From an uncultured Rickettsiales bacterium (GTDB taxonomy: Bacteria > Pseudomonadota > Alphaproteobacteria > Rickettsiales > CAZNNM01): DNA of 64,000 bases. The notes beneath the pieces are model-generated. The model saw only the letters and a list, made by a program, of their open reading frames with translations, was not told the origin of the DNA and did no database searches. Positions 23,955 through 45,722 of this stretch are shown one piece after another (within the stretch, counting starts at the first letter, position 1; each line of letters opens with the position of its first letter). The DNA lies in assembly GCA_964574415.1 (NCBI GenBank), contig CAZNNM010000002.1, forward strand, positions 239,110 to 303,109, read 5' to 3'. The translations under genes and the position numbers were made by a program.

Positions 23955-23978
23955 TGGATGCTGGATCCTGAAAATATT

Positions 23979-25732
23979 ATGAGTAAACAAGACTATTACA
24001 GCCTACTTGGTGTGCAACGTGGTGTGAATGCGGATGAGCTTAAAAAAGCTTACCGCAAACTTGCGATGCAATACCACCCAGACCGCAATCCTGGCGATGC
24101 CGCCGCCGAGCAAAAATTCAAAGAAGTCAGTGAAGCGTATGACGTCTTAAAAGACGATCAAAAACGCGCAGCCTATGACCGTTATGGCCATGCAGCATTT
24201 GAGAATGGTGGCATGGGCGGAATGGGCGGCGGCCGCAATGCTGGCTTTGATTTTAATGGCAGTTTTGCAGATATATTTAGCGATCTCTTCGGTGAAATGG
24301 GCGGCCGTGGCGCCGGCGGTGGACGTGGCGGCGAAGCGGCACGTAGCCGTGGCTCTGATCTACGCTATAACCTCAATATCACCCTCGAAGAAGCCTTTGC
24401 AGGCAAACAAGAAAAAATCCGCTTTAATACCCTTGCATCCTGCGATGAATGCGATGGCAAAGGAAGCAAAAGCAGTGCTGGCGTTACCAATTGCCCAACC
24501 TGTAACGGTATGGGGAAAGTGCGCGCGCAACAAGGATTCTTCACCATTGAACGCACCTGCCCAAGCTGTCATGGCGTTGGCCAAACGATCAAAGACCCAT
24601 GTGGTAAATGCCGTGGTGAAGGCCGCGTGCAACGTGAGAAAACCTTATCCGTCACCATTCCAGCCGGCGTGGAAGAAGGCACACGCATTCGCTTAGCAGG
24701 CGAAGGCGAGATGGGCATACGCAATGGCACACCCGGCGATTTATATATCGTCATCGATGTAAAACAACACGCGCTCTTCCAGCGCGATGGCAGCAATATC
24801 CATTGCCGCGTTCCACTCACCATGACAACAGCCGCGTTAGGCGGCAGCGTAGAAGTGCCAACCATTGACGGCACACGCGCAAAAGTGTCTATCCCTGCTG
24901 GCACTCAATATGGCGACCAATTCCGCCTCAAAGGCAAAGGTATGAGCATTATCCACTCGAAGAATCGTGGTGACATGTATATCCATGCCACAATCGAAAC
25001 ACCGGTAAAACTCACCAAACGCCTAATACCCTTGCATCCTGCGATGAATGCGATGGCAAAGGAAGCAAAAGCAGTGCTGGCGTTACCAATTGCCCAACCT
25101 GTAACGGTATGGGGAAAGTGCGCGCGCAACAAGGATTCTTCACCATTGAACGCACCTGCCCAAGCTGTCATGGCGTTGGCCAAACGATCAAAGACCCATG
25201 TGGTAAATGCCGTGGTGAAGGCCGCGTGCAACGTGAGAAAACCTTATCCGTCACCATTCCAGCCGGCGTGGAAGAAGGCACACGCATTCGCTTAGCAGGC
25301 GAAGGCGAGATGGGCATACGCAATGGCACACCCGGCGATTTATATATCGTCATCGATGTAAAACAACACGCGCTCTTCCAGCGCGATGGCAGCAATATCC
25401 ATTGCCGCGTTCCACTCACCATGACAACAGCCGCGTTAGGCGGCAGCGTAGAAGTGCCAACCATTGACGGCACACGCGCAAAAGTGTCTATCCCTGCTGG
25501 CACTCAATATGGCGACCAATTCCGCCTCAAAGGCAAAGGTATGAGCATTATCCACTCGAAGAATCGTGGTGACATGTATATCCATGCCACAATCGAAACA
25601 CCGGTAAAACTCACCAAACGCCAAAAAGAACTGCTACAAGAATTTGAAAGCGGCGCCGAAACGGGCTCTTCACCGGAATCAGAAGGATTCTTTAAGAAGG
25701 TGAAGGAATTGTGGGGGGATTTGAAAAGTTAG
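23979..25732 (+). pseudogene. dnaJ: dnaJ interrupted by a perfect 599-bp internal tandem duplication (frameshift)
   Basis: J domain (DYYSLLGV...HPDRNP), G/F region, CxxCxGxG zinc fingers and the C-terminal domain are all present. The reading frame breaks at 25023/25024. Removing one 599-bp copy restores a 384-aa ORF ending ...[11 protein letters not shown]. Confidence 0.85.
24425..25622 (+). repeat. Perfect direct tandem duplication, 2 x 599 bp, inside dnaJ
   Basis: 24425..25023 and 25024..25622 read identically line by line. Antisense ORFs 24569..24904 and 25168..25503 give identical 111-aa translations offset by 599 nt. Confidence 0.95.
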
Positions 25733-25740
25733 GACAATAG

Positions 25741-25865
25741 TGTCATTCCAGCGGAGGCTGGAATCCAGTTATTACTGGTGAGCATAGCGAACTCCCTATT
25801 AAAGGACAAGTGTTCGCTACCGCTCACAAACATTGCGCTGGATGCCAGCCTACGCTGGCATGACA
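25741..25865. repeat. Family E palindromic repeat
   Basis: tgtcattccagcggaggctggaatccag...ctggatgccagcctacgctggcatgaca. The internal part is also self-complementary (gagcatagcgaac.../...gttcgctaccgctc). Confidence 0.9.
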
Positions 25866-25961
25866 ACACTCATCGCCCCTCACTAAAACACTTACTTTTT
25901 CTTAACGATCTGCTATACTCTTTATCCATAATGGAAACGAACAACCCCTAGGTAGAGTATC

Positions 25962-26465
25962 ATGCCTTACTCATCACTTGCTATTGCCAATGAATTCATC
26001 GACCGCGCTAACAAAGCCGGACAGCCGCTGACGAATATGCAGCTGCAAAAATTGGTATATCTGGCGCATGGGTTTAACCTGGCAGTAAATAATTCTCCGC
26101 TGGTGGAAGAATCGGTGGAAGCATGGAATTATGGCACGGTATACCGCCGTCTCTATGATGCACTTAAATTCTACGGCCCCACACCCGTGATTGAGATGAT
26201 CCGTTGGGGCGATGATACGCCCAGTGTTTCTGGCGCTGGCGAATATGCCCGCGAATCCCTTAAACCAGAAGAAGATGAGCTGATCACCCGCGTATGGCAA
26301 CTCTATGGCCACTTCCCAGCCTTCAAGCTGTCTGCCATCACCCATGAAGAGCGCAGCCCATGGAAGAAATGCTACGAACCAGGGAGAAATCGTGCTATAC
26401 CTGATAACGATATACGCGATTATTTCTGCTCACTGATTGAGAATAAGGTTGAGAGTCAAGCATGA
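25962..26465 (+). CDS. DUF4065 / Panacea-domain protein (SocA/PanA-type putative antitoxin)
   Basis: 167 aa. The N-terminal pattern AIANEFIDRANKAGQPLTNMQLQKLVYLAHGFNLAVNNSPLVEESVEAWNYGTVYRRLY matches the DUF4065 consensus (LQKLLYyAqG..La....pLf.e.ieAW.yGPV...vY). Confidence 0.8.
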   Translation: MPYSSLAIANEFIDRANKAGQPLTNMQLQKLVYLAHGFNLAVNNSPLVEESVEAWNYGTVYRRLYDALKFYGPTPVIEMIRWGDDTPSVSGAGEYARESLKPEEDELITRVWQLYGHFPAFKLSAITHEERSPWKKCYEPGRNRAIPDNDIRDYFCSLIENKVESQA

Positions 26466-26842
26466 CATTACCGGATGTATTAACCCGCGACGCGCTCAGC
26501 TCCGCCATCGCTCTGACCGAGCAAAAAACCGAGCCGGATCAACTCGATCAACTGGAATCTTCGCGCGCTTATAATGATGCACGCACACGCTCTATCACCG
26601 AAGAGAACCTAGACCGCAAAGCCAACCGCCGTCTGCGCTTTCAATATGCACGGCAGGTATATTTATATTTGGTATGGTATTCAATTATTGCAGCGCTGAT
26701 TCTCGTGTTAGAGGCGTTTGGCCCGCATATTGGTTTCCATTTACCTGAACTCGTACTCGTCACCCTCGTCGGCAGCACAGGAGCAAGCGCAATTGGCTTA
26801 GTAGGATTCGTGGTAAACGGCTTATTCAAAGGCGGAGCATAA
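26462..26842 (+). CDS. Small two-TM protein, candidate toxin partner of the Panacea-domain protein
   Basis: 126 aa. ATGA start/stop overlap with the upstream gene. Charged N-terminal half, then two hydrophobic helices (VYLYLVWYSIIAALILVLEAF; LVLVTLVGSTGASAIGLVGFVVNGLF). No family recognised. Confidence 0.55.
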   Translation: MTLPDVLTRDALSSAIALTEQKTEPDQLDQLESSRAYNDARTRSITEENLDRKANRRLRFQYARQVYLYLVWYSIIAALILVLEAFGPHIGFHLPELVLVTLVGSTGASAIGLVGFVVNGLFKGGA

Positions 26843-26843
26843 T

Positions 26844-27377
26844 ATGGCACATGTCTTACTCATCATCACAGGCAGTATTGCGGCGATTAAAACCTATGAC
26901 ATTATCCGCCAACTAAAAGCAAAATCAATCGATGTCACTTGTGTGCTAACGCGCGCGGCTGAGCAGTTTGTGACACCGCTTTCGCTTGCTTCACTTTCTG
27001 GCAATAAAGTCTATACGGATATGTTCTCCCTCACCGATGAAATTGAAATGGGGCATATCCAGCTTTCGCGCATGGCAGATTTGGTAGTGGTTGCACCTGC
27101 CAGTGCCGATAGCATCGGCAAACTCGCACAAGGCCTGGCAGATGACCTTGCTAGCACTCTGCTGCTTGCCACCGATAAAAAAGTCCTCATCGCCCCTGCG
27201 ATGAATGTGCGTATGTGGGAGCATCCGGCAGTGCAACGCAATGTCGCACGCATCCAGAATGATGGCGCAATTCTCGTTGAGCCTGTAGACGGTGATTTAG
27301 CCTGTGGCGAAACCGGAAAAGGCCGTATGGCAGAGCCAGAGGCTATTGTGCAGGCGATTACGGCGCAGCTACGATGA
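26844..27377 (+). CDS. coaC: Phosphopantothenoylcysteine decarboxylase (CoaC flavoprotein domain as a separate ORF)
   Basis: 177 aa. LLIITGSIAAIKTYDIIRQLK and PAMNVRMWEHPAVQRN motifs. The stop overlaps the coaB ATG (ATGA). Confidence 0.85.
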   Translation: MAHVLLIITGSIAAIKTYDIIRQLKAKSIDVTCVLTRAAEQFVTPLSLASLSGNKVYTDMFSLTDEIEMGHIQLSRMADLVVVAPASADSIGKLAQGLADDLASTLLLATDKKVLIAPAMNVRMWEHPAVQRNVARIQNDGAILVEPVDGDLACGETGKGRMAEPEAIVQAITAQLR

Positions 27378-28009
27378 AAGCCCTCGTCACCAGCGGCCCA
27401 ACGCAAGAACGCATTGATCCCGTCCGCTATCTCAGCAATGATTCCTCCGGCAAACAAGGCCATGCTATTGCAGCAGCGCTTGCTGCGCGTGGAATAGAGG
27501 TTGTGTTGATCTCTGGCCCCGTTCATATTCCCGATCCAGCAGGCGTGCGTGTGGTACATGTTATAACGGCCGAAGAAATGCTTGCCGCTTGCGAGCGTGA
27601 GCTACCGTGTGATATCGCGATTTGCGCTGCCGCCGTCAGCGATTGGTGCGCAAAAACCATCGCGCCTCACAAGCTCAAAAAACAACAGGATCAAAACGAG
27701 CTAACATTCACCCTCATCAAAAACCCTGATATTCTATCCCATCTCAGCCACCATGCCAAACGCCCCTCACTGGTAGTTGGGTTTGCGGCAGAAACCGAAA
27801 ATCTCCTCACCAATGCCCGCAATAAACTGGCCTCTAAAGGCTGCGATTGGATTATGGCCAATGATGTATCTAAAGGACAAGTATTTGGACAGGATCGTAC
27901 TTCGGTACATCTGATTACCGCTGAACAAACGCTTCATTGGGATAATCTGAGTAAAACAGAAATGGCGGAGCGGTTGGTGGAGCGGATTATTAGCACCGTC
28001 TCTGCTTAA
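27374..28009 (+). CDS. coaB: Phosphopantothenate--cysteine ligase (CoaB domain as a separate ORF)
   Basis: 211 aa. ALVTSGPTQERIDPVRYLSNDSSGKQG and AAAVSDW motifs. Confidence 0.85.
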   Translation: MKALVTSGPTQERIDPVRYLSNDSSGKQGHAIAAALAARGIEVVLISGPVHIPDPAGVRVVHVITAEEMLAACERELPCDIAICAAAVSDWCAKTIAPHKLKKQQDQNELTFTLIKNPDILSHLSHHAKRPSLVVGFAAETENLLTNARNKLASKGCDWIMANDVSKGQVFGQDRTSVHLITAEQTLHWDNLSKTEMAERLVERIISTVSA

Positions 28010-28710: not shown

Positions 28711-28728
28711 CCATAATCATTCTAGGAA

Positions 28729-28805
<77 letters not shown>

Positions 28806-28937
28806 TCACGAAACGCGTTGTTTACTGCGAAGGGTTGTATCTATAAAACGGTAAATACGTCTTGTCAAAGGATTTATTTAGGCTTGGCGGAACTATTCAT
28901 TTGGTTTATGCTCCTAGCATTGTTTTTTAAGGATTTT

Positions 28938-31574
28938 ATGACTAAGGTTCAACATCAGGCCTCCAACCCTCAAAGCTCCGTCTGGCTTGCGGCCTCGGCT
29001 GGAACTGGCAAAACCAAGGTTTTGACGGATCGTGTGCTGCGCTTGCTGCTATCAGGCGTAGATGCCTCACATATACTCTGCCTCACCTATACCAGCGCCG
29101 CCGCCGCCGAGATGGAAACCCGTATCCACAGCCGCTTGAGCGATTGGGTGATTGCTGATGATGCAACATTACAGACACAATTAGAAGCCCTCACGGGAGA
29201 ACCCGCTAGCAATGCGATGTTGACCCAAGCCCGCCTCTTATTTGCCACCGTGCTTGATACGCCACAAGGCCTCAAAATCCAGACGATTCACGCATTCTGC
29301 CAGAATATCCTCTCGCGCTTCCCCCTGGAAGCTGGGATTGCACCGCATACGACTATCATGGATAACCAAACCCGCCATGAATTGCTAAGTGAAGCTAAAA
29401 TGCGGCTTCTGATGGCACGCACACAGGATAAAGCCCTGGCTGAAGCCATCAAAGCACTGGCCTGCCGTCTGCATGAAAGCAATTTCCTGGAACTACTGGA
29501 AACTATCATTAACCAAAGCATCCGCTTAGGCCGTTTGCTGGAAAATACACCACTTGCCGACGTGATTGCCCGTGTGTATAGCGCCCTTGGTGTACAGCAA
29601 CACGAAACCGAGGCACAGATTCTTACCGATTATGCGCTTGATGCCGACCAAACCGGCCTTTATGCTTGCGTAAGCACTCTGTTTGAAGGCGGCAAGACCG
29701 ATCAGAAATACGGCCAAGCCATCAAAACCTGGCTGGATAGCGATGCCGAAGAACGCGTAATAGGGTGGGAGGCGTATCAGAGTGTTTTTGTCACCCAAGA
29801 AGGCAAAGCGCGTGATAAATTATGCAGCAAAGCCATTATGGACGGCGCACCACATATTGCCGATACTCTGGCCGAAGAACAACAGCGCATCCTCGCTGCA
29901 TTGGAACATATACGCTCCGTCCGCACCGCAAGCTTTACCCATTATGTCCTCCGCCTTAGCCATGCCTTGCTGGAACATTACCACCAGCTGAAAACACGTT
30001 ATGGCTATATGGATTTTAACGATGTGATCTATAGCACCCGCAAACTGCTCACCGAATCGGTGGCGATGGATTGGGTGCTGTATAAGCTGGATAATGGGAT
30101 TGATCATATATTAGTCGATGAAGCCCAAGATACCAGCCCTGACCAATGGCATATTATCACCCAATTGCTCAGCGAATTCTTTGCAGGAGAATCCATTGGC
30201 GGCAGAATCCGCACACTTTTCGTCGTAGGCGATGAAAAACAATCGATCTACCGCTTCCAAGGCGCTGATCCTAAAATGTTCCAGACCATGCAAGCCACCT
30301 ATGAAACGCAAGCGCTGCAAAGCAATGCGTTATGGCAATCGCTTTCGCTGGATATGTCCTTCCGGTCTACCGAGGCGGTGCTAACATTAGTGGATGCCAT
30401 CTGCGCACATCCGGTGCTAAAACCCTATCTCAGCCCTACCACTGCCGTCATACATCACCATGTATTCCGCACCAACCAGCCAGGCATTATCGAACTCTGG
30501 CCCGTGATAGAGGCAGAAACGCAAGAAACCGTAGACCCATGGCCTTTACCAATCACCCGCCGCCACAGCCAAGACCCCGCCACACGCGTGGCAGAGCAGA
30601 TCGCAGAGACGATTCATCACTGGCGCAACAGCAAACGCCCCCTTGCTTCACGCGGCCGGCCTGTGGAGCCTGGGGATATCATGATTCTGGTGCGACGGCG
30701 TAATCACTTTGTCGATGCAATGGTACGTGCGCTTAAACAGCGCAACATCCCTGTAGCAGGTACGGATAGGCTAGTCCTCACCGATCATATCGCCATTATG
30801 GATCTCATCGCACTCGGCGAATTCCTGCTTTTCCCGCAGGATGACCTCACCCTCGCCACCCTTCTCAAAACTCCACTTATTGGCCTAAGCGAAGAAGCCC
30901 TGTTCACACTGGCACATGACCGTGGCAAAGAATCGCTTTGGAGCCGGCTGATAGAGCGCCAGGCGGAGTATCCTCAAGCCTATAGCTATCTTCACGATCT
31001 GCTACAGCGTGTAGATGCCATCACCCCGTTTGAACTGTATAGCTATGTGCTGGATATACGTGCAGGCCGTACTGATTTTATTGCCCGCATGGGTGATGAG
31101 GTGAATGATCCGTTTGACGAATTCCTAGACCTCGCCCTCACCTATGAACAAAGCCATACCGCTTCACTGCAAGGCTTTTTACATTGGCTTAAAACCTCTC
31201 CGGTGGAAATCAAACGCGATATGGAACAAAGCAGCAATGAAGTGCGCATTATGACCGTGCATGGCGCTAAAGGTCTGCAAGCTCCTATCGTCTTCCTACC
31301 TGATACCACCCAAATGCCTTATAACAAACCAGGCGAATTTATCTGGCAGGATGACTTGTTCTTCTGGCCTGGCGGACGTGCCAATGAAAATGCACTCTGC
31401 ACCACCCTACGCACCGCGCAATCACAAGAACAAACCGAAGAATACTACCGCCTACTCTACGTAGCCCTCACACGCGCAGAGGATGAGCTGTATATTGCTG
31501 GCTGGCAAGGCACTAAAAAACGGCCGGATGGGTGTTGGTATACGATTTTGGAGAATGTGATAAAAAGGTCTTAG
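28938..31574 (+). CDS. addA: AddA-type (UvrD/Rep superfamily 1) helicase, apparently lacking the C-terminal nuclease domain
   Basis: Start set at ATG 28938 (MTKVQHQASNPQSSVWLAASAGTGKTKVLTDRV), because the longer ORF runs through tRNA-Ile. Helicase motifs up to LLYVALTRAEDELYIAG are present. The ORF ends 30 aa later at 878 aa, next to a repeat. Confidence 0.75.
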   Translation: MTKVQHQASNPQSSVWLAASAGTGKTKVLTDRVLRLLLSGVDASHILCLTYTSAAAAEMETRIHSRLSDWVIADDATLQTQLEALTGEPASNAMLTQARLLFATVLDTPQGLKIQTIHAFCQNILSRFPLEAGIAPHTTIMDNQTRHELLSEAKMRLLMARTQDKALAEAIKALACRLHESNFLELLETIINQSIRLGRLLENTPLADVIARVYSALGVQQHETEAQILTDYALDADQTGLYACVSTLFEGGKTDQKYGQAIKTWLDSDAEERVIGWEAYQSVFVTQEGKARDKLCSKAIMDGAPHIADTLAEEQQRILAALEHIRSVRTASFTHYVLRLSHALLEHYHQLKTRYGYMDFNDVIYSTRKLLTESVAMDWVLYKLDNGIDHILVDEAQDTSPDQWHIITQLLSEFFAGESIGGRIRTLFVVGDEKQSIYRFQGADPKMFQTMQATYETQALQSNALWQSLSLDMSFRSTEAVLTLVDAICAHPVLKPYLSPTTAVIHHHVFRTNQPGIIELWPVIEAETQETVDPWPLPITRRHSQDPATRVAEQIAETIHHWRNSKRPLASRGRPVEPGDIMILVRRRNHFVDAMVRALKQRNIPVAGTDRLVLTDHIAIMDLIALGEFLLFPQDDLTLATLLKTPLIGLSEEALFTLAHDRGKESLWSRLIERQAEYPQAYSYLHDLLQRVDAITPFELYSYVLDIRAGRTDFIARMGDEVNDPFDEFLDLALTYEQSHTASLQGFLHWLKTSPVEIKRDMEQSSNEVRIMTVHGAKGLQAPIVFLPDTTQMPYNKPGEFIWQDDLFFWPGGRANENALCTTLRTAQSQEQTEEYYRLLYVALTRAEDELYIAGWQGTKKRPDGCWYTILENVIKRS

Positions 31575-45601: not shown

Positions 45602-45722
45602 TGTCATTCCAGCGTAGGCTGGAATCCAGCGCAACGCTTGCGAACGTTTAGTGAGCGCTTTATATTTCGCGTTCACTACGCTCACGAGTAATTACTAGAT
45701 CCCAGCCTGCGCTGGGATGACA
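45602..45722. repeat. Family E palindromic repeat in the carA-carB spacer
   Basis: tgtcattccagcgtaggctggaatccag...ctagatcccagcctgcgctgggatgaca, with an internal inverted gtgagcg.../...cgctcac segment. Confidence 0.9.

Follow-up and report, generated by a model that had tools for sequence, protein, structure and literature searches.

The 64,000-nucleotide (nt) stretch of contig CAZNNM010000002.1 analysed here (the window) carries, between dnaJ and the coenzyme A (CoA) genes coaC and coaB, two small overlapping genes, panA and panT, whose products we compare below with those of the PanA-PanT toxin-antitoxin (TA) systems. The first open reading frame (ORF) encodes a protein of 167 amino acids (aa) and the second a protein of 126 aa, and the stop codon of panA and the start codon of panT share the tetranucleotide ATGA at 26462..26465, as a first-pass annotation made from the DNA letters had described. 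A Shine-Dalgarno-like sequence (AAGGTTGAGAG) precedes panT, and GGAG precedes coaC, whose ATG follows the panT stop codon (TAA, 26840..26842) by 1 nt, which also agrees with the earlier description. On the dnaJ side, panA is preceded by a short conserved leader and by a palindromic element resembling a miniature inverted-repeat transposable element (MITE). These features are collected in Table 1.

Table 1. Features of the panA-panT locus, in window coordinates (TM, transmembrane; AF2, AlphaFold2)
Feature	Position	Strand	Basis or detail
MITE-like palindrome in the dnaJ-panA spacer	25741..25865	.	28-nt inverted arms (25741-25768 and 25838-25865), 89% complementary
Conserved leader, candidate promoter/operator of panAT(-coaCB)	25876..25947	+	Conservation; TATACT at 25914-25919, palindrome at 25925-25935
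panA, predicted stand-alone Panacea (DUF4065) antitoxin gene	25962..26465	+	ATG start, 167 aa
GTV in place of the canonical Panacea GPV signature	26131..26139	+	G58-T59-V60 within WNYGTVY (residues 55-61); sequence comparison
panT, membrane protein gene, predicted toxin	26462..26842	+	126 aa, ATG start, overlaps panA stop
PanT, predicted charged cytoplasmic N-terminal domain, residues 1-64	26462..26653	+	Motif K..PD..D..E, basic cluster, AF2 helices
PanT, predicted TM helix 1, residues 65-85	26654..26716	+	Kyte-Doolittle maximum 2.17 at residues 68-86; end of AF2 helix 27-85
PanT, predicted TM helix 2, residues 96-122	26747..26827	+	Small-residue-rich; hydropathy 1.7-1.9; AF2 helix 96-125
coaC	26844..27377	+	Pfam Flavoprotein, 3.2e-35
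coaB	27374..28009	+	Pfam DFP, 2e-68

The assignment of PanA to the Panacea (DUF4065) family, first made by eye, is confirmed by profile search: the protein scores 71.8 bits with Pfam PF13274 (SocA_Panacea), whose cut-off is 25.7 (E value, 1.1e-19), over the entire model (positions 1 to 113 of 113), and it also matches PHROG 1281 (E value, 4e-43). Panacea is the sole domain of the protein, with neither a DNA-binding nor any further domain beside it. A search of PanA against PDB sequences returned no match; one against 72,556 plasmids returned 15 distant matches, and the three of these loci that we inspected had no PanT-like partner.

Hydropathy, charge, and an AlphaFold2 model all agree with the original description of PanT as a protein with a charged N-terminal half followed by two hydrophobic helices. 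Residues 1 to 62 contain 10 Lys or Arg and 11 Asp or Glu, while residues 50 to 64, which include the basic cluster RKANRRLRFQYAR, carry a net charge of +5. Kyte-Doolittle averages over 19-residue windows exceed 1.5 within residues 63 to 94 and 96 to 118. The AlphaFold2 model, built on an 81-sequence alignment (mean predicted local distance difference test score, 88.8), has helices at residues 9 to 21, 27 to 85, and 96 to 125; the last ca. 20 residues of the long second helix are hydrophobic, and they are followed by a 10-residue loop and then by the third helix. On this basis we predict that PanT is an inner-membrane protein built as a helical hairpin, with its N-terminal ca. 64 residues and its C terminus in the cytoplasm, given that the +5 cluster lies just before TM1 (the positive-inside rule). 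TM2, in which glycine and other small residues abound, is the most conserved part of the toxin family. It carries the family signature LVGSTxxSAIGLVGFVVxGLF, and none of 20 aligned sequences, among them that of the Escherichia coli PanT discussed below, departs from G104, from the run G112-L113-V114-G115-F116-V117-V118, or from L121. We take the spacing of G104, S/A108, G112, G115, and G120 to resemble that of a glycine zipper. In the N-terminal part, K22, D26, D29, and E32 are conserved columns; they make up the one motif that the alphaproteobacterial subfamily conserves outside the membrane.

PanT itself has no match in Pfam or NCBIfam and matches no family of PADLOC-DB 2.0 at an E value of ≤1; its model resembles no fold in PDB or BFVD at an E value of ≤0.001, and its profile matches no PDB sequence. 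We also considered, and rejected, a phage holin: the only match to a holin PHROG had an E value of 0.9, and the neighbouring genes are panA and coaC, with no endolysin gene among them. A word-indexed search yielded only five relatives. When an alignment of those relatives was used in an exhaustive hidden Markov model search, we obtained 1531 cluster representatives (clustered at 50% identity) with E values of ≤1e-3, 345 of them with E values of ≤1e-10, so that the PanT family must be large, though unnamed. Consistent with this, a Pfam scan of 81 family members gave no recurring family, only scattered weak matches to DUF2975, DUF2207_C, and S_4TM. There are, in other words, more than 1500 clusters of small two-TM proteins that are served by no Pfam, NCBIfam, or PADLOC model and that are currently labelled "hypothetical" or given stray DUF names. 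The family can be recognised by the motif GST..S..GLVGFVV.GLF(K) together with its obligate linkage to Panacea genes, and a family profile would give it a name.

This linkage, to which the first-pass annotation had tied its reading of the two genes, proved to be without exception among the relatives. In the window and in every fetched locus with upstream sequence (14 independent loci, the basis of this count), the PanT homologue adjoins a Panacea gene, which lies directly upstream of it. Thus, on four metagenome contigs carrying three distinct close homologues, a gene recognised by Pfam as Panacea lies immediately upstream of, and overlaps, the panT homologue in four of four cases. When the most conserved peptide of the family was used to scan genomes, one for each species, it yielded 11 loci, which belong to Alphaproteobacteria wherever they are named to class or below (Methylobacterium, Niveispirillum, Thalassospira, Robiginitomaculum, Rhodobacteraceae, Parvibaculaceae, Methyloligella, Caulobacter, and Methylocystis), one being labelled only "MAG: bacterium". 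All 10 of these loci for which upstream sequence exists have a Panacea ORF directly upstream (68 to 90 bits in Pfam). The same order of genes is found on a viral contig from IMG/VR and in an E. coli prophage. The spacing of the two genes ranges from a gap of 22 nt to an overlap of 89 nt and is mostly an overlap of 4 to 37 nt. A tblastn search of PanT against the plasmid collection mentioned above gave no match. The genes around homologous pairs at other loci (L001 to L004) include those for BolA, a glycosyltransferase, and other TA pairs. At one of these, on a metagenome contig (L003:7672-8340), the pair lies some 3 kb from a PIN/MazE-type TA pair, which hints at a TA-rich accessory region, unlike the housekeeping setting of the pair in the window.

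The reading of the two genes as a PanAT module is further supported by their relationship to an experimentally studied pair from E. coli. A tblastn search of phage genomes matched three Escherichia phages, and the record PV340566 annotates the matching gene as PanT beside PanA. In RefSeq E. coli genomes, that prophage DNA encodes WP_000287252.1 followed by WP_000019187.1, the first of which is listed in Table 1 of Kurata 2022 (PMC8832971) as an experimentally validated E. coli PanA, with WP_000019185.1 as its toxin. The window PanA is 36% identical to WP_000287252.1 over its full length (E value, 1e-37). For the toxin, hhalign comparison of a six-sequence profile of the alphaproteobacterial type, made without the E. 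coli protein, with the prophage PanT gave a probability of 97.1% (E value, 6.4e-11) over 74 columns that span TM1, the loop, and TM2, and BLASTP aligned the window PanT directly with the E. coli PanT at 26% identity (E value, 6e-9). The core common to the two proteins reads LxGSTxxSxxGLVGFVVxGLFK. Moreover, PanT_Esc.col, of toxin cluster T3, was described as having a charged N terminus and a C-terminal TM region (Kurata 2022, PMC8832971), and the window PanT has the same architecture, with its charged N-terminal region and C-terminal hairpin. Each half of the window module thus has its homologue in the validated pair of E. coli. The window pair shares with this pair from Shiga toxin-producing E. 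coli (STEC) O31 and lambdoid prophages not only the signature GST..S..GLVGFVV.GLFK and the architecture of the toxin, but also an antitoxin gene that comes first and a stand-alone Panacea domain. The two differ in that the E. coli toxin has 182 aa rather than 126 and an N-terminal domain unrelated in sequence, that the E. coli genes are separated by a 22-nt gap whereas those in the window overlap by 4 nt, that the E. coli pair sits in a prophage accessory region whereas the window pair is chromosomal, between dnaJ and coaC, and that the E. coli antitoxin has GPV where the window PanA has GTV.

We therefore put at about 0.78 the probability that the locus encodes a PanA-PanT TA module of the membrane-toxin class, as its sequence relationships suggest. 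The pair is a fresh example of the already known PanAT system; what is unusual about it is that it has long resided, strongly conserved, immediately ahead of two genes essential for coenzyme A synthesis. It reveals neither a new toxin fold nor a new mechanism. The suggestion in the first-pass annotation that the toxin could not be placed and was possibly novel does not stand, because the family, unnamed as it is in domain databases, already has a validated member. Several observations weigh against our reading. The toxins are only 26% identical, and this similarity is confined to the C-terminal ca. 100 residues, the N-terminal domains being unrelated in sequence. In addition, the E. coli toxin that we compared, WP_000019187.1, is a variant of the one that was tested, WP_000019185.1. 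Eight of the PanTs tested by Kurata 2022 (PMC8832971) were not toxic in E. coli, so that homology is no guarantee of toxicity. The Panacea signature, GPV, which the same study reported to be critical for neutralisation, reads GTV in the window PanA; GTV also occurs in the PanA of a sister lineage (L009) and at locus L001, while the other 13 partners have GPV, the G and the V being invariant throughout. Finally, the long vertical retention of the pair that we describe below, in a neighbourhood where no protein is better conserved than PanA, is unusual for a selfish TA pair, and the two proteins could instead have a domesticated, nontoxic role.

If the pair works as its E. coli relative does, the course of events can be outlined by analogy. 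Expression of PanT_Esc.col inhibits transcription, translation, and replication together and causes strong depolarisation along with increased permeability to SYTOX Green (Kurata 2022, PMC8832971). Free window PanT would likewise insert into the membrane as a hairpin with both termini inside, would oligomerise through the small-residue face of TM2, and would dissipate the membrane potential and permeabilise the membrane, a collapse that would halt transcription, translation, and replication at once. PanA would neutralise the toxin by direct binding, as in type II systems. In Bartonella, a stand-alone Panacea protein directly neutralises a membrane PanT, contacting its N-terminal region and a short helix that precedes the TM segment, and the PanA substitutions Y56A and H120E abolish neutralisation (Ernits 2023, PMC10440598). 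By analogy, the window PanA most probably grips the conserved acidic N-terminal segment and the short helix ahead of the membrane helices of PanT. Residues 1 to 64 are accordingly our proposed PanA-binding region, on the strength of the Bartonella choladocola PanT:PanA model and the mutants reported there (PMC10440598).

The Bartonella choladocola/apis pair, PanT(D11):PanA of cluster T12, resembles the window pair in its alphaproteobacterial host and its stand-alone Panacea protein, and we presume that the window PanA would likewise neutralise its partner directly. Its small toxin, which has been shown to depolarise and permeabilise the membrane (Kurata 2022, PMC8832971; Ernits 2023, PMC10440598), has a charged N-terminal portion ahead of its TM helices, an architecture that is also predicted for the window PanT. 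Clusters T3 and T12 were called only "potentially homologous" by Kurata et al. 2022 (PMC8832971). We tried one such comparison, of the PanT family with gp D11S_2262 of the Aggregatibacter phage S1249, and found no detectable similarity (hhalign probability, 0.5%), so that the potential homology of T3 and T12 does not appear to be supported in this single case. At that phage locus (L006:36265-37036), the antitoxin matches the PanA profile at 5e-28, and the partner toxin belongs to T12, the same cluster as the Bartonella toxin.

The effect that we would expect of the window PanT, loss of membrane potential with global shutdown, is that of HokB, of TisB, and of the RosmerTA toxin RmrT, which serve as comparators in both studies of PanT (Kurata 2022, PMC8832971; Ernits 2023, PMC10440598). 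None of these is related in sequence to the window PanT. Hok and TisB are also much smaller, at ca. 30 to 50 aa, with a single TM helix and control by antisense RNA (type I), unlike the window toxin with its 126 aa, two TM helices, and protein antitoxin.

A second type of Panacea system deserves consideration, since the best NCBIfam match of PanA is the SocA model NF047745.1 (103.6 bits, with 152 of 176 positions aligned). In SocA/SocB of Caulobacter crescentus (type VI, toxin cluster T10), as in the window, a Panacea antitoxin gene comes first and overlaps the toxin gene, and the host is an alphaproteobacterium, as are nearly all hosts in the T10 cluster of Kurata 2022 (PMC8832971). Many T10 pairs, moreover, overlap by 23 nt, as do the homologous loci L002 to L004. 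On this model, PanA would serve ClpXP as an adaptor, bringing it an unstable toxin to degrade; the toxin would block replication by way of the beta sliding clamp. We consider this very improbable. The SocA score lies far below the equivalog cut-off of 190 bits, and no SocB-named NCBIfam model was matched at an E value of ≤10. Whereas SocB (WP_010921343.1) is described as a clamp-binding inhibitor of replication that is degraded by ClpXP, PanT is a predicted membrane hairpin, an integral protein with two TM helices, and its conserved core is the very TM hairpin that it has in common with a membrane-depolarising toxin. Its conserved N-terminal residues are acidic (D26, D29, and E32) and include no motif of the QL[SD]LF type, which is the consensus of the clamp motif. 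In RefSeq, the Caulobacter members of the PanT family are named "hypothetical protein" and not SocB. Lastly, neutralisation by PanA needed neither ClpXP nor Lon (Kurata 2022, PMC8832971).

A membrane-active PanAT module might also serve in abortive infection, with PanA sensing a phage cue and releasing PanT so that the infected cell is depolarised before phage are released. This proposal overlaps our own and differs from it only in the trigger and the purpose. The validated E. coli homologue lies in a prophage accessory region, beside exo/ea22 in phage PhiR47_1, and PanT matches the phage protein families PHROG 13343 (E value, 3e-9) and PHROG 26171 (E value, 2.5e-8); one homologous pair, as noted above, is on a viral contig. 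Panacea has indeed been proposed to act as a sensor, and RosmerTA, whose toxin depolarises the membrane, has been shown to defend against phage (Ernits 2023, PMC10440598). Against this, no PADLOC model matches PanA or PanT, the window pair has dnaKJ and coaCB as its neighbours and is flanked by no gene of a phage, integrase, or defence type, and the subfamily motif was found on only 1 of 2.9 million IMG/VR contigs. Nor has a PanAT pair with a membrane toxin been reported as a defence system in Kurata 2022, Ernits 2023, or the other literature that we examined. A role in phage defence thus seems to us possible but rather doubtful.

The genomic setting of the window pair bears on its age. A consensus scan detected no terminator-like site or promoter on the + strand between panT and coaC and no + strand promoter within panT, and coaC and coaB are therefore probably cotranscribed with panAT. 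The order dnaJ-panA-panT-coaC-coaB-BTP is kept on diverged contigs of a sister lineage that derive from other sequencing runs (L009 and L010), and the order panA-panT-coaC-coaB is found on L008 as well. Relative to L009, panA has a nucleotide identity of 86%, a synonymous divergence (dS) of 0.85, a ratio of nonsynonymous to synonymous divergence (dN/dS) of 0.037, and an amino acid identity of 96.4%; the corresponding values are 81%, 1.20, 0.054, and 90.5% for panT, 83%, 0.78, 0.089, and 89.8% for coaC, and 75%, 1.95, 0.061, and 79.6% for coaB. The amino acid identities of DnaJ, the C-terminal part of DnaK, and BTP are 94.3%, 90.4%, and 89.8%, so that PanA is the most conserved of the neighbourhood proteins compared. 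Both panA and panT are under strong purifying selection. The similar dS values across these genes argue against recent transfer, and the G+C content of panAT, both overall and at third codon positions, matches that of the neighbouring genes.

It had been suggested from the position of the pair that it was inserted into the leader of coaBC. Among 80 more distant metagenome coaC loci (≤68% identity), none has panAT or dnaJ upstream, which makes the association of panAT with coaCB lineage-specific. None of these 80 relatives provides an empty site close enough for the insertion to be reconstructed. A recent insertion is contradicted by the sister lineage, which is separated from that of the window by dS values of ca. 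0.8 to 1.9 and in which strong purifying selection maintains an identical gene order; the pair is therefore old, and insertion into the coaBC leader would be an ancient event at best. With its vertically inherited PanAT pair, which abuts essential genes and evolves under strong purifying selection, the locus is a clear natural case that bears on the question of why chromosomal TA pairs are kept.

One answer would be that the two proteins are no longer toxic, and that a membrane protein and its cytoplasmic partner now have a housekeeping or regulatory role tied to coaC and coaB. Such domestication would account for a gene order that is conserved between lineages with dS values of 0.78 to 1.95, for a PanA that is more conserved than DnaJ, CoaC, and CoaB, for a coaC start 1 nt after panT with no + strand terminator or promoter match in between, and for the fully host-like composition of panAT. 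Strong co-conservation of both genes is, however, also what one would predict of an active toxin with an indispensable antitoxin. Furthermore, the pair is absent from all 80 of the related coaC loci and is found elsewhere in unrelated settings (L001 to L004), so that the linkage to coaCB is peculiar to the lineage of the window and is not a property of the family. We regard a nontoxic pair as improbable. A more speculative thought is that the panAT pair was captured by the host and has long been fixed at the head of the coaC-coaB unit with an invariant leader of its own. Though we give it little credence, such capture would make an essential CoA operon impossible to lose or to silence, or would couple membrane energisation to CoA or chaperone status with PanA as the sensor, and it would amount to the domestication of a TA pair within the core metabolism of an uncultured lineage of alphaproteobacteria.

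The leader itself is identical at 72 of 72 nt in the window, L008, L009, and L010, while the flanking coding DNA of L009 and L010 is only 75 to 86% identical and synonymous sites have nearly reached saturation between the lineages. It contains the -10-like sequence TATACT and the palindrome TCCAT-A-ATGGA (TCCATAATGGA). A consensus scan detected no promoter in the leader and nothing convincing upstream of panA, and a search with Rfam, which recovered only three tRNAs across the window, gave no match to the leader. We infer from its conservation only that the leader has a regulatory role, as a promoter/operator or as a 5' untranslated region. PanA, as a stand-alone Panacea protein, has no DNA-binding domain by which it would recognise this likely regulatory element.

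The MITE-like element that the first-pass annotation had placed upstream of the pair is a genuine inverted repeat, 125 nt long, with terminal inverted repeats of 28 nt (TGTCATTCCAGCGGAGGCTGGAATCCAG), and a further copy of the arm lies at 45602-45629, where 0 matches would be expected by chance. At the same site, L009 (2060-2090) and L010 have only a 28-nt hairpin (GTGTCATACCAGCAGAGGCTGGTATGAC). Because the sister lineage has the hairpin only and yet has the pair, the MITE must be a later event that is separate from panAT. The outer hairpin without the rest likewise implies that the element (or its 97-nt core) comes and goes over short periods. The MITE is not part of the panAT module, and it varies between strains.

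Beyond the MITE, dnaJ (23958..25732) contains an exact 599-nt tandem duplication (24425-25023 and 25024-25622, 100% identical), which throws the gene out of frame and leaves it as two ORFs, 23958..25295 and 25109..25732. With one copy removed, the gene encodes a DnaJ of 391 codons, which shares 94% identity with the unbroken 386-aa DnaJ of L009. Either the duplication arose in the assembly, or it is a very recent event that disrupts the gene.

On the other side of the pair, CoaC and CoaB are encoded by two distinct genes with an ATGA overlap (27374..27377), an arrangement also present in L008, L009, and L010. In 75 of 77 related metagenome loci with both halves, coaBC is one continuous ORF, and a split coaBC is unusual for bacteria. 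The window DnaK has its best match, at 85% identity, among 5.8 billion proteins; its named relatives are 79 to 81% identical and are nearly all from Alphaproteobacteria, and DnaK, CoaB, and CoaC each stand alone in their 90%-identity clusters. By these comparisons, the source lineage is a deep-branching uncultured alphaproteobacterium; the G+C content of the window is 48.3%. Downstream of coaB, a stand-alone tRNA-Ile(GAT) gene lies on the - strand at 28729..28805, outside any rRNA operon. A helicase-like ORF of 948 aa (28728..31574) begins by reading through this tRNA gene on the opposite strand (MVGPGRVELPTSRL...), and its true start must therefore lie further downstream. In L009, the corresponding gene, for a UvrD-family helicase, has the reverse orientation, a sign that the two lineages differ by a local rearrangement.

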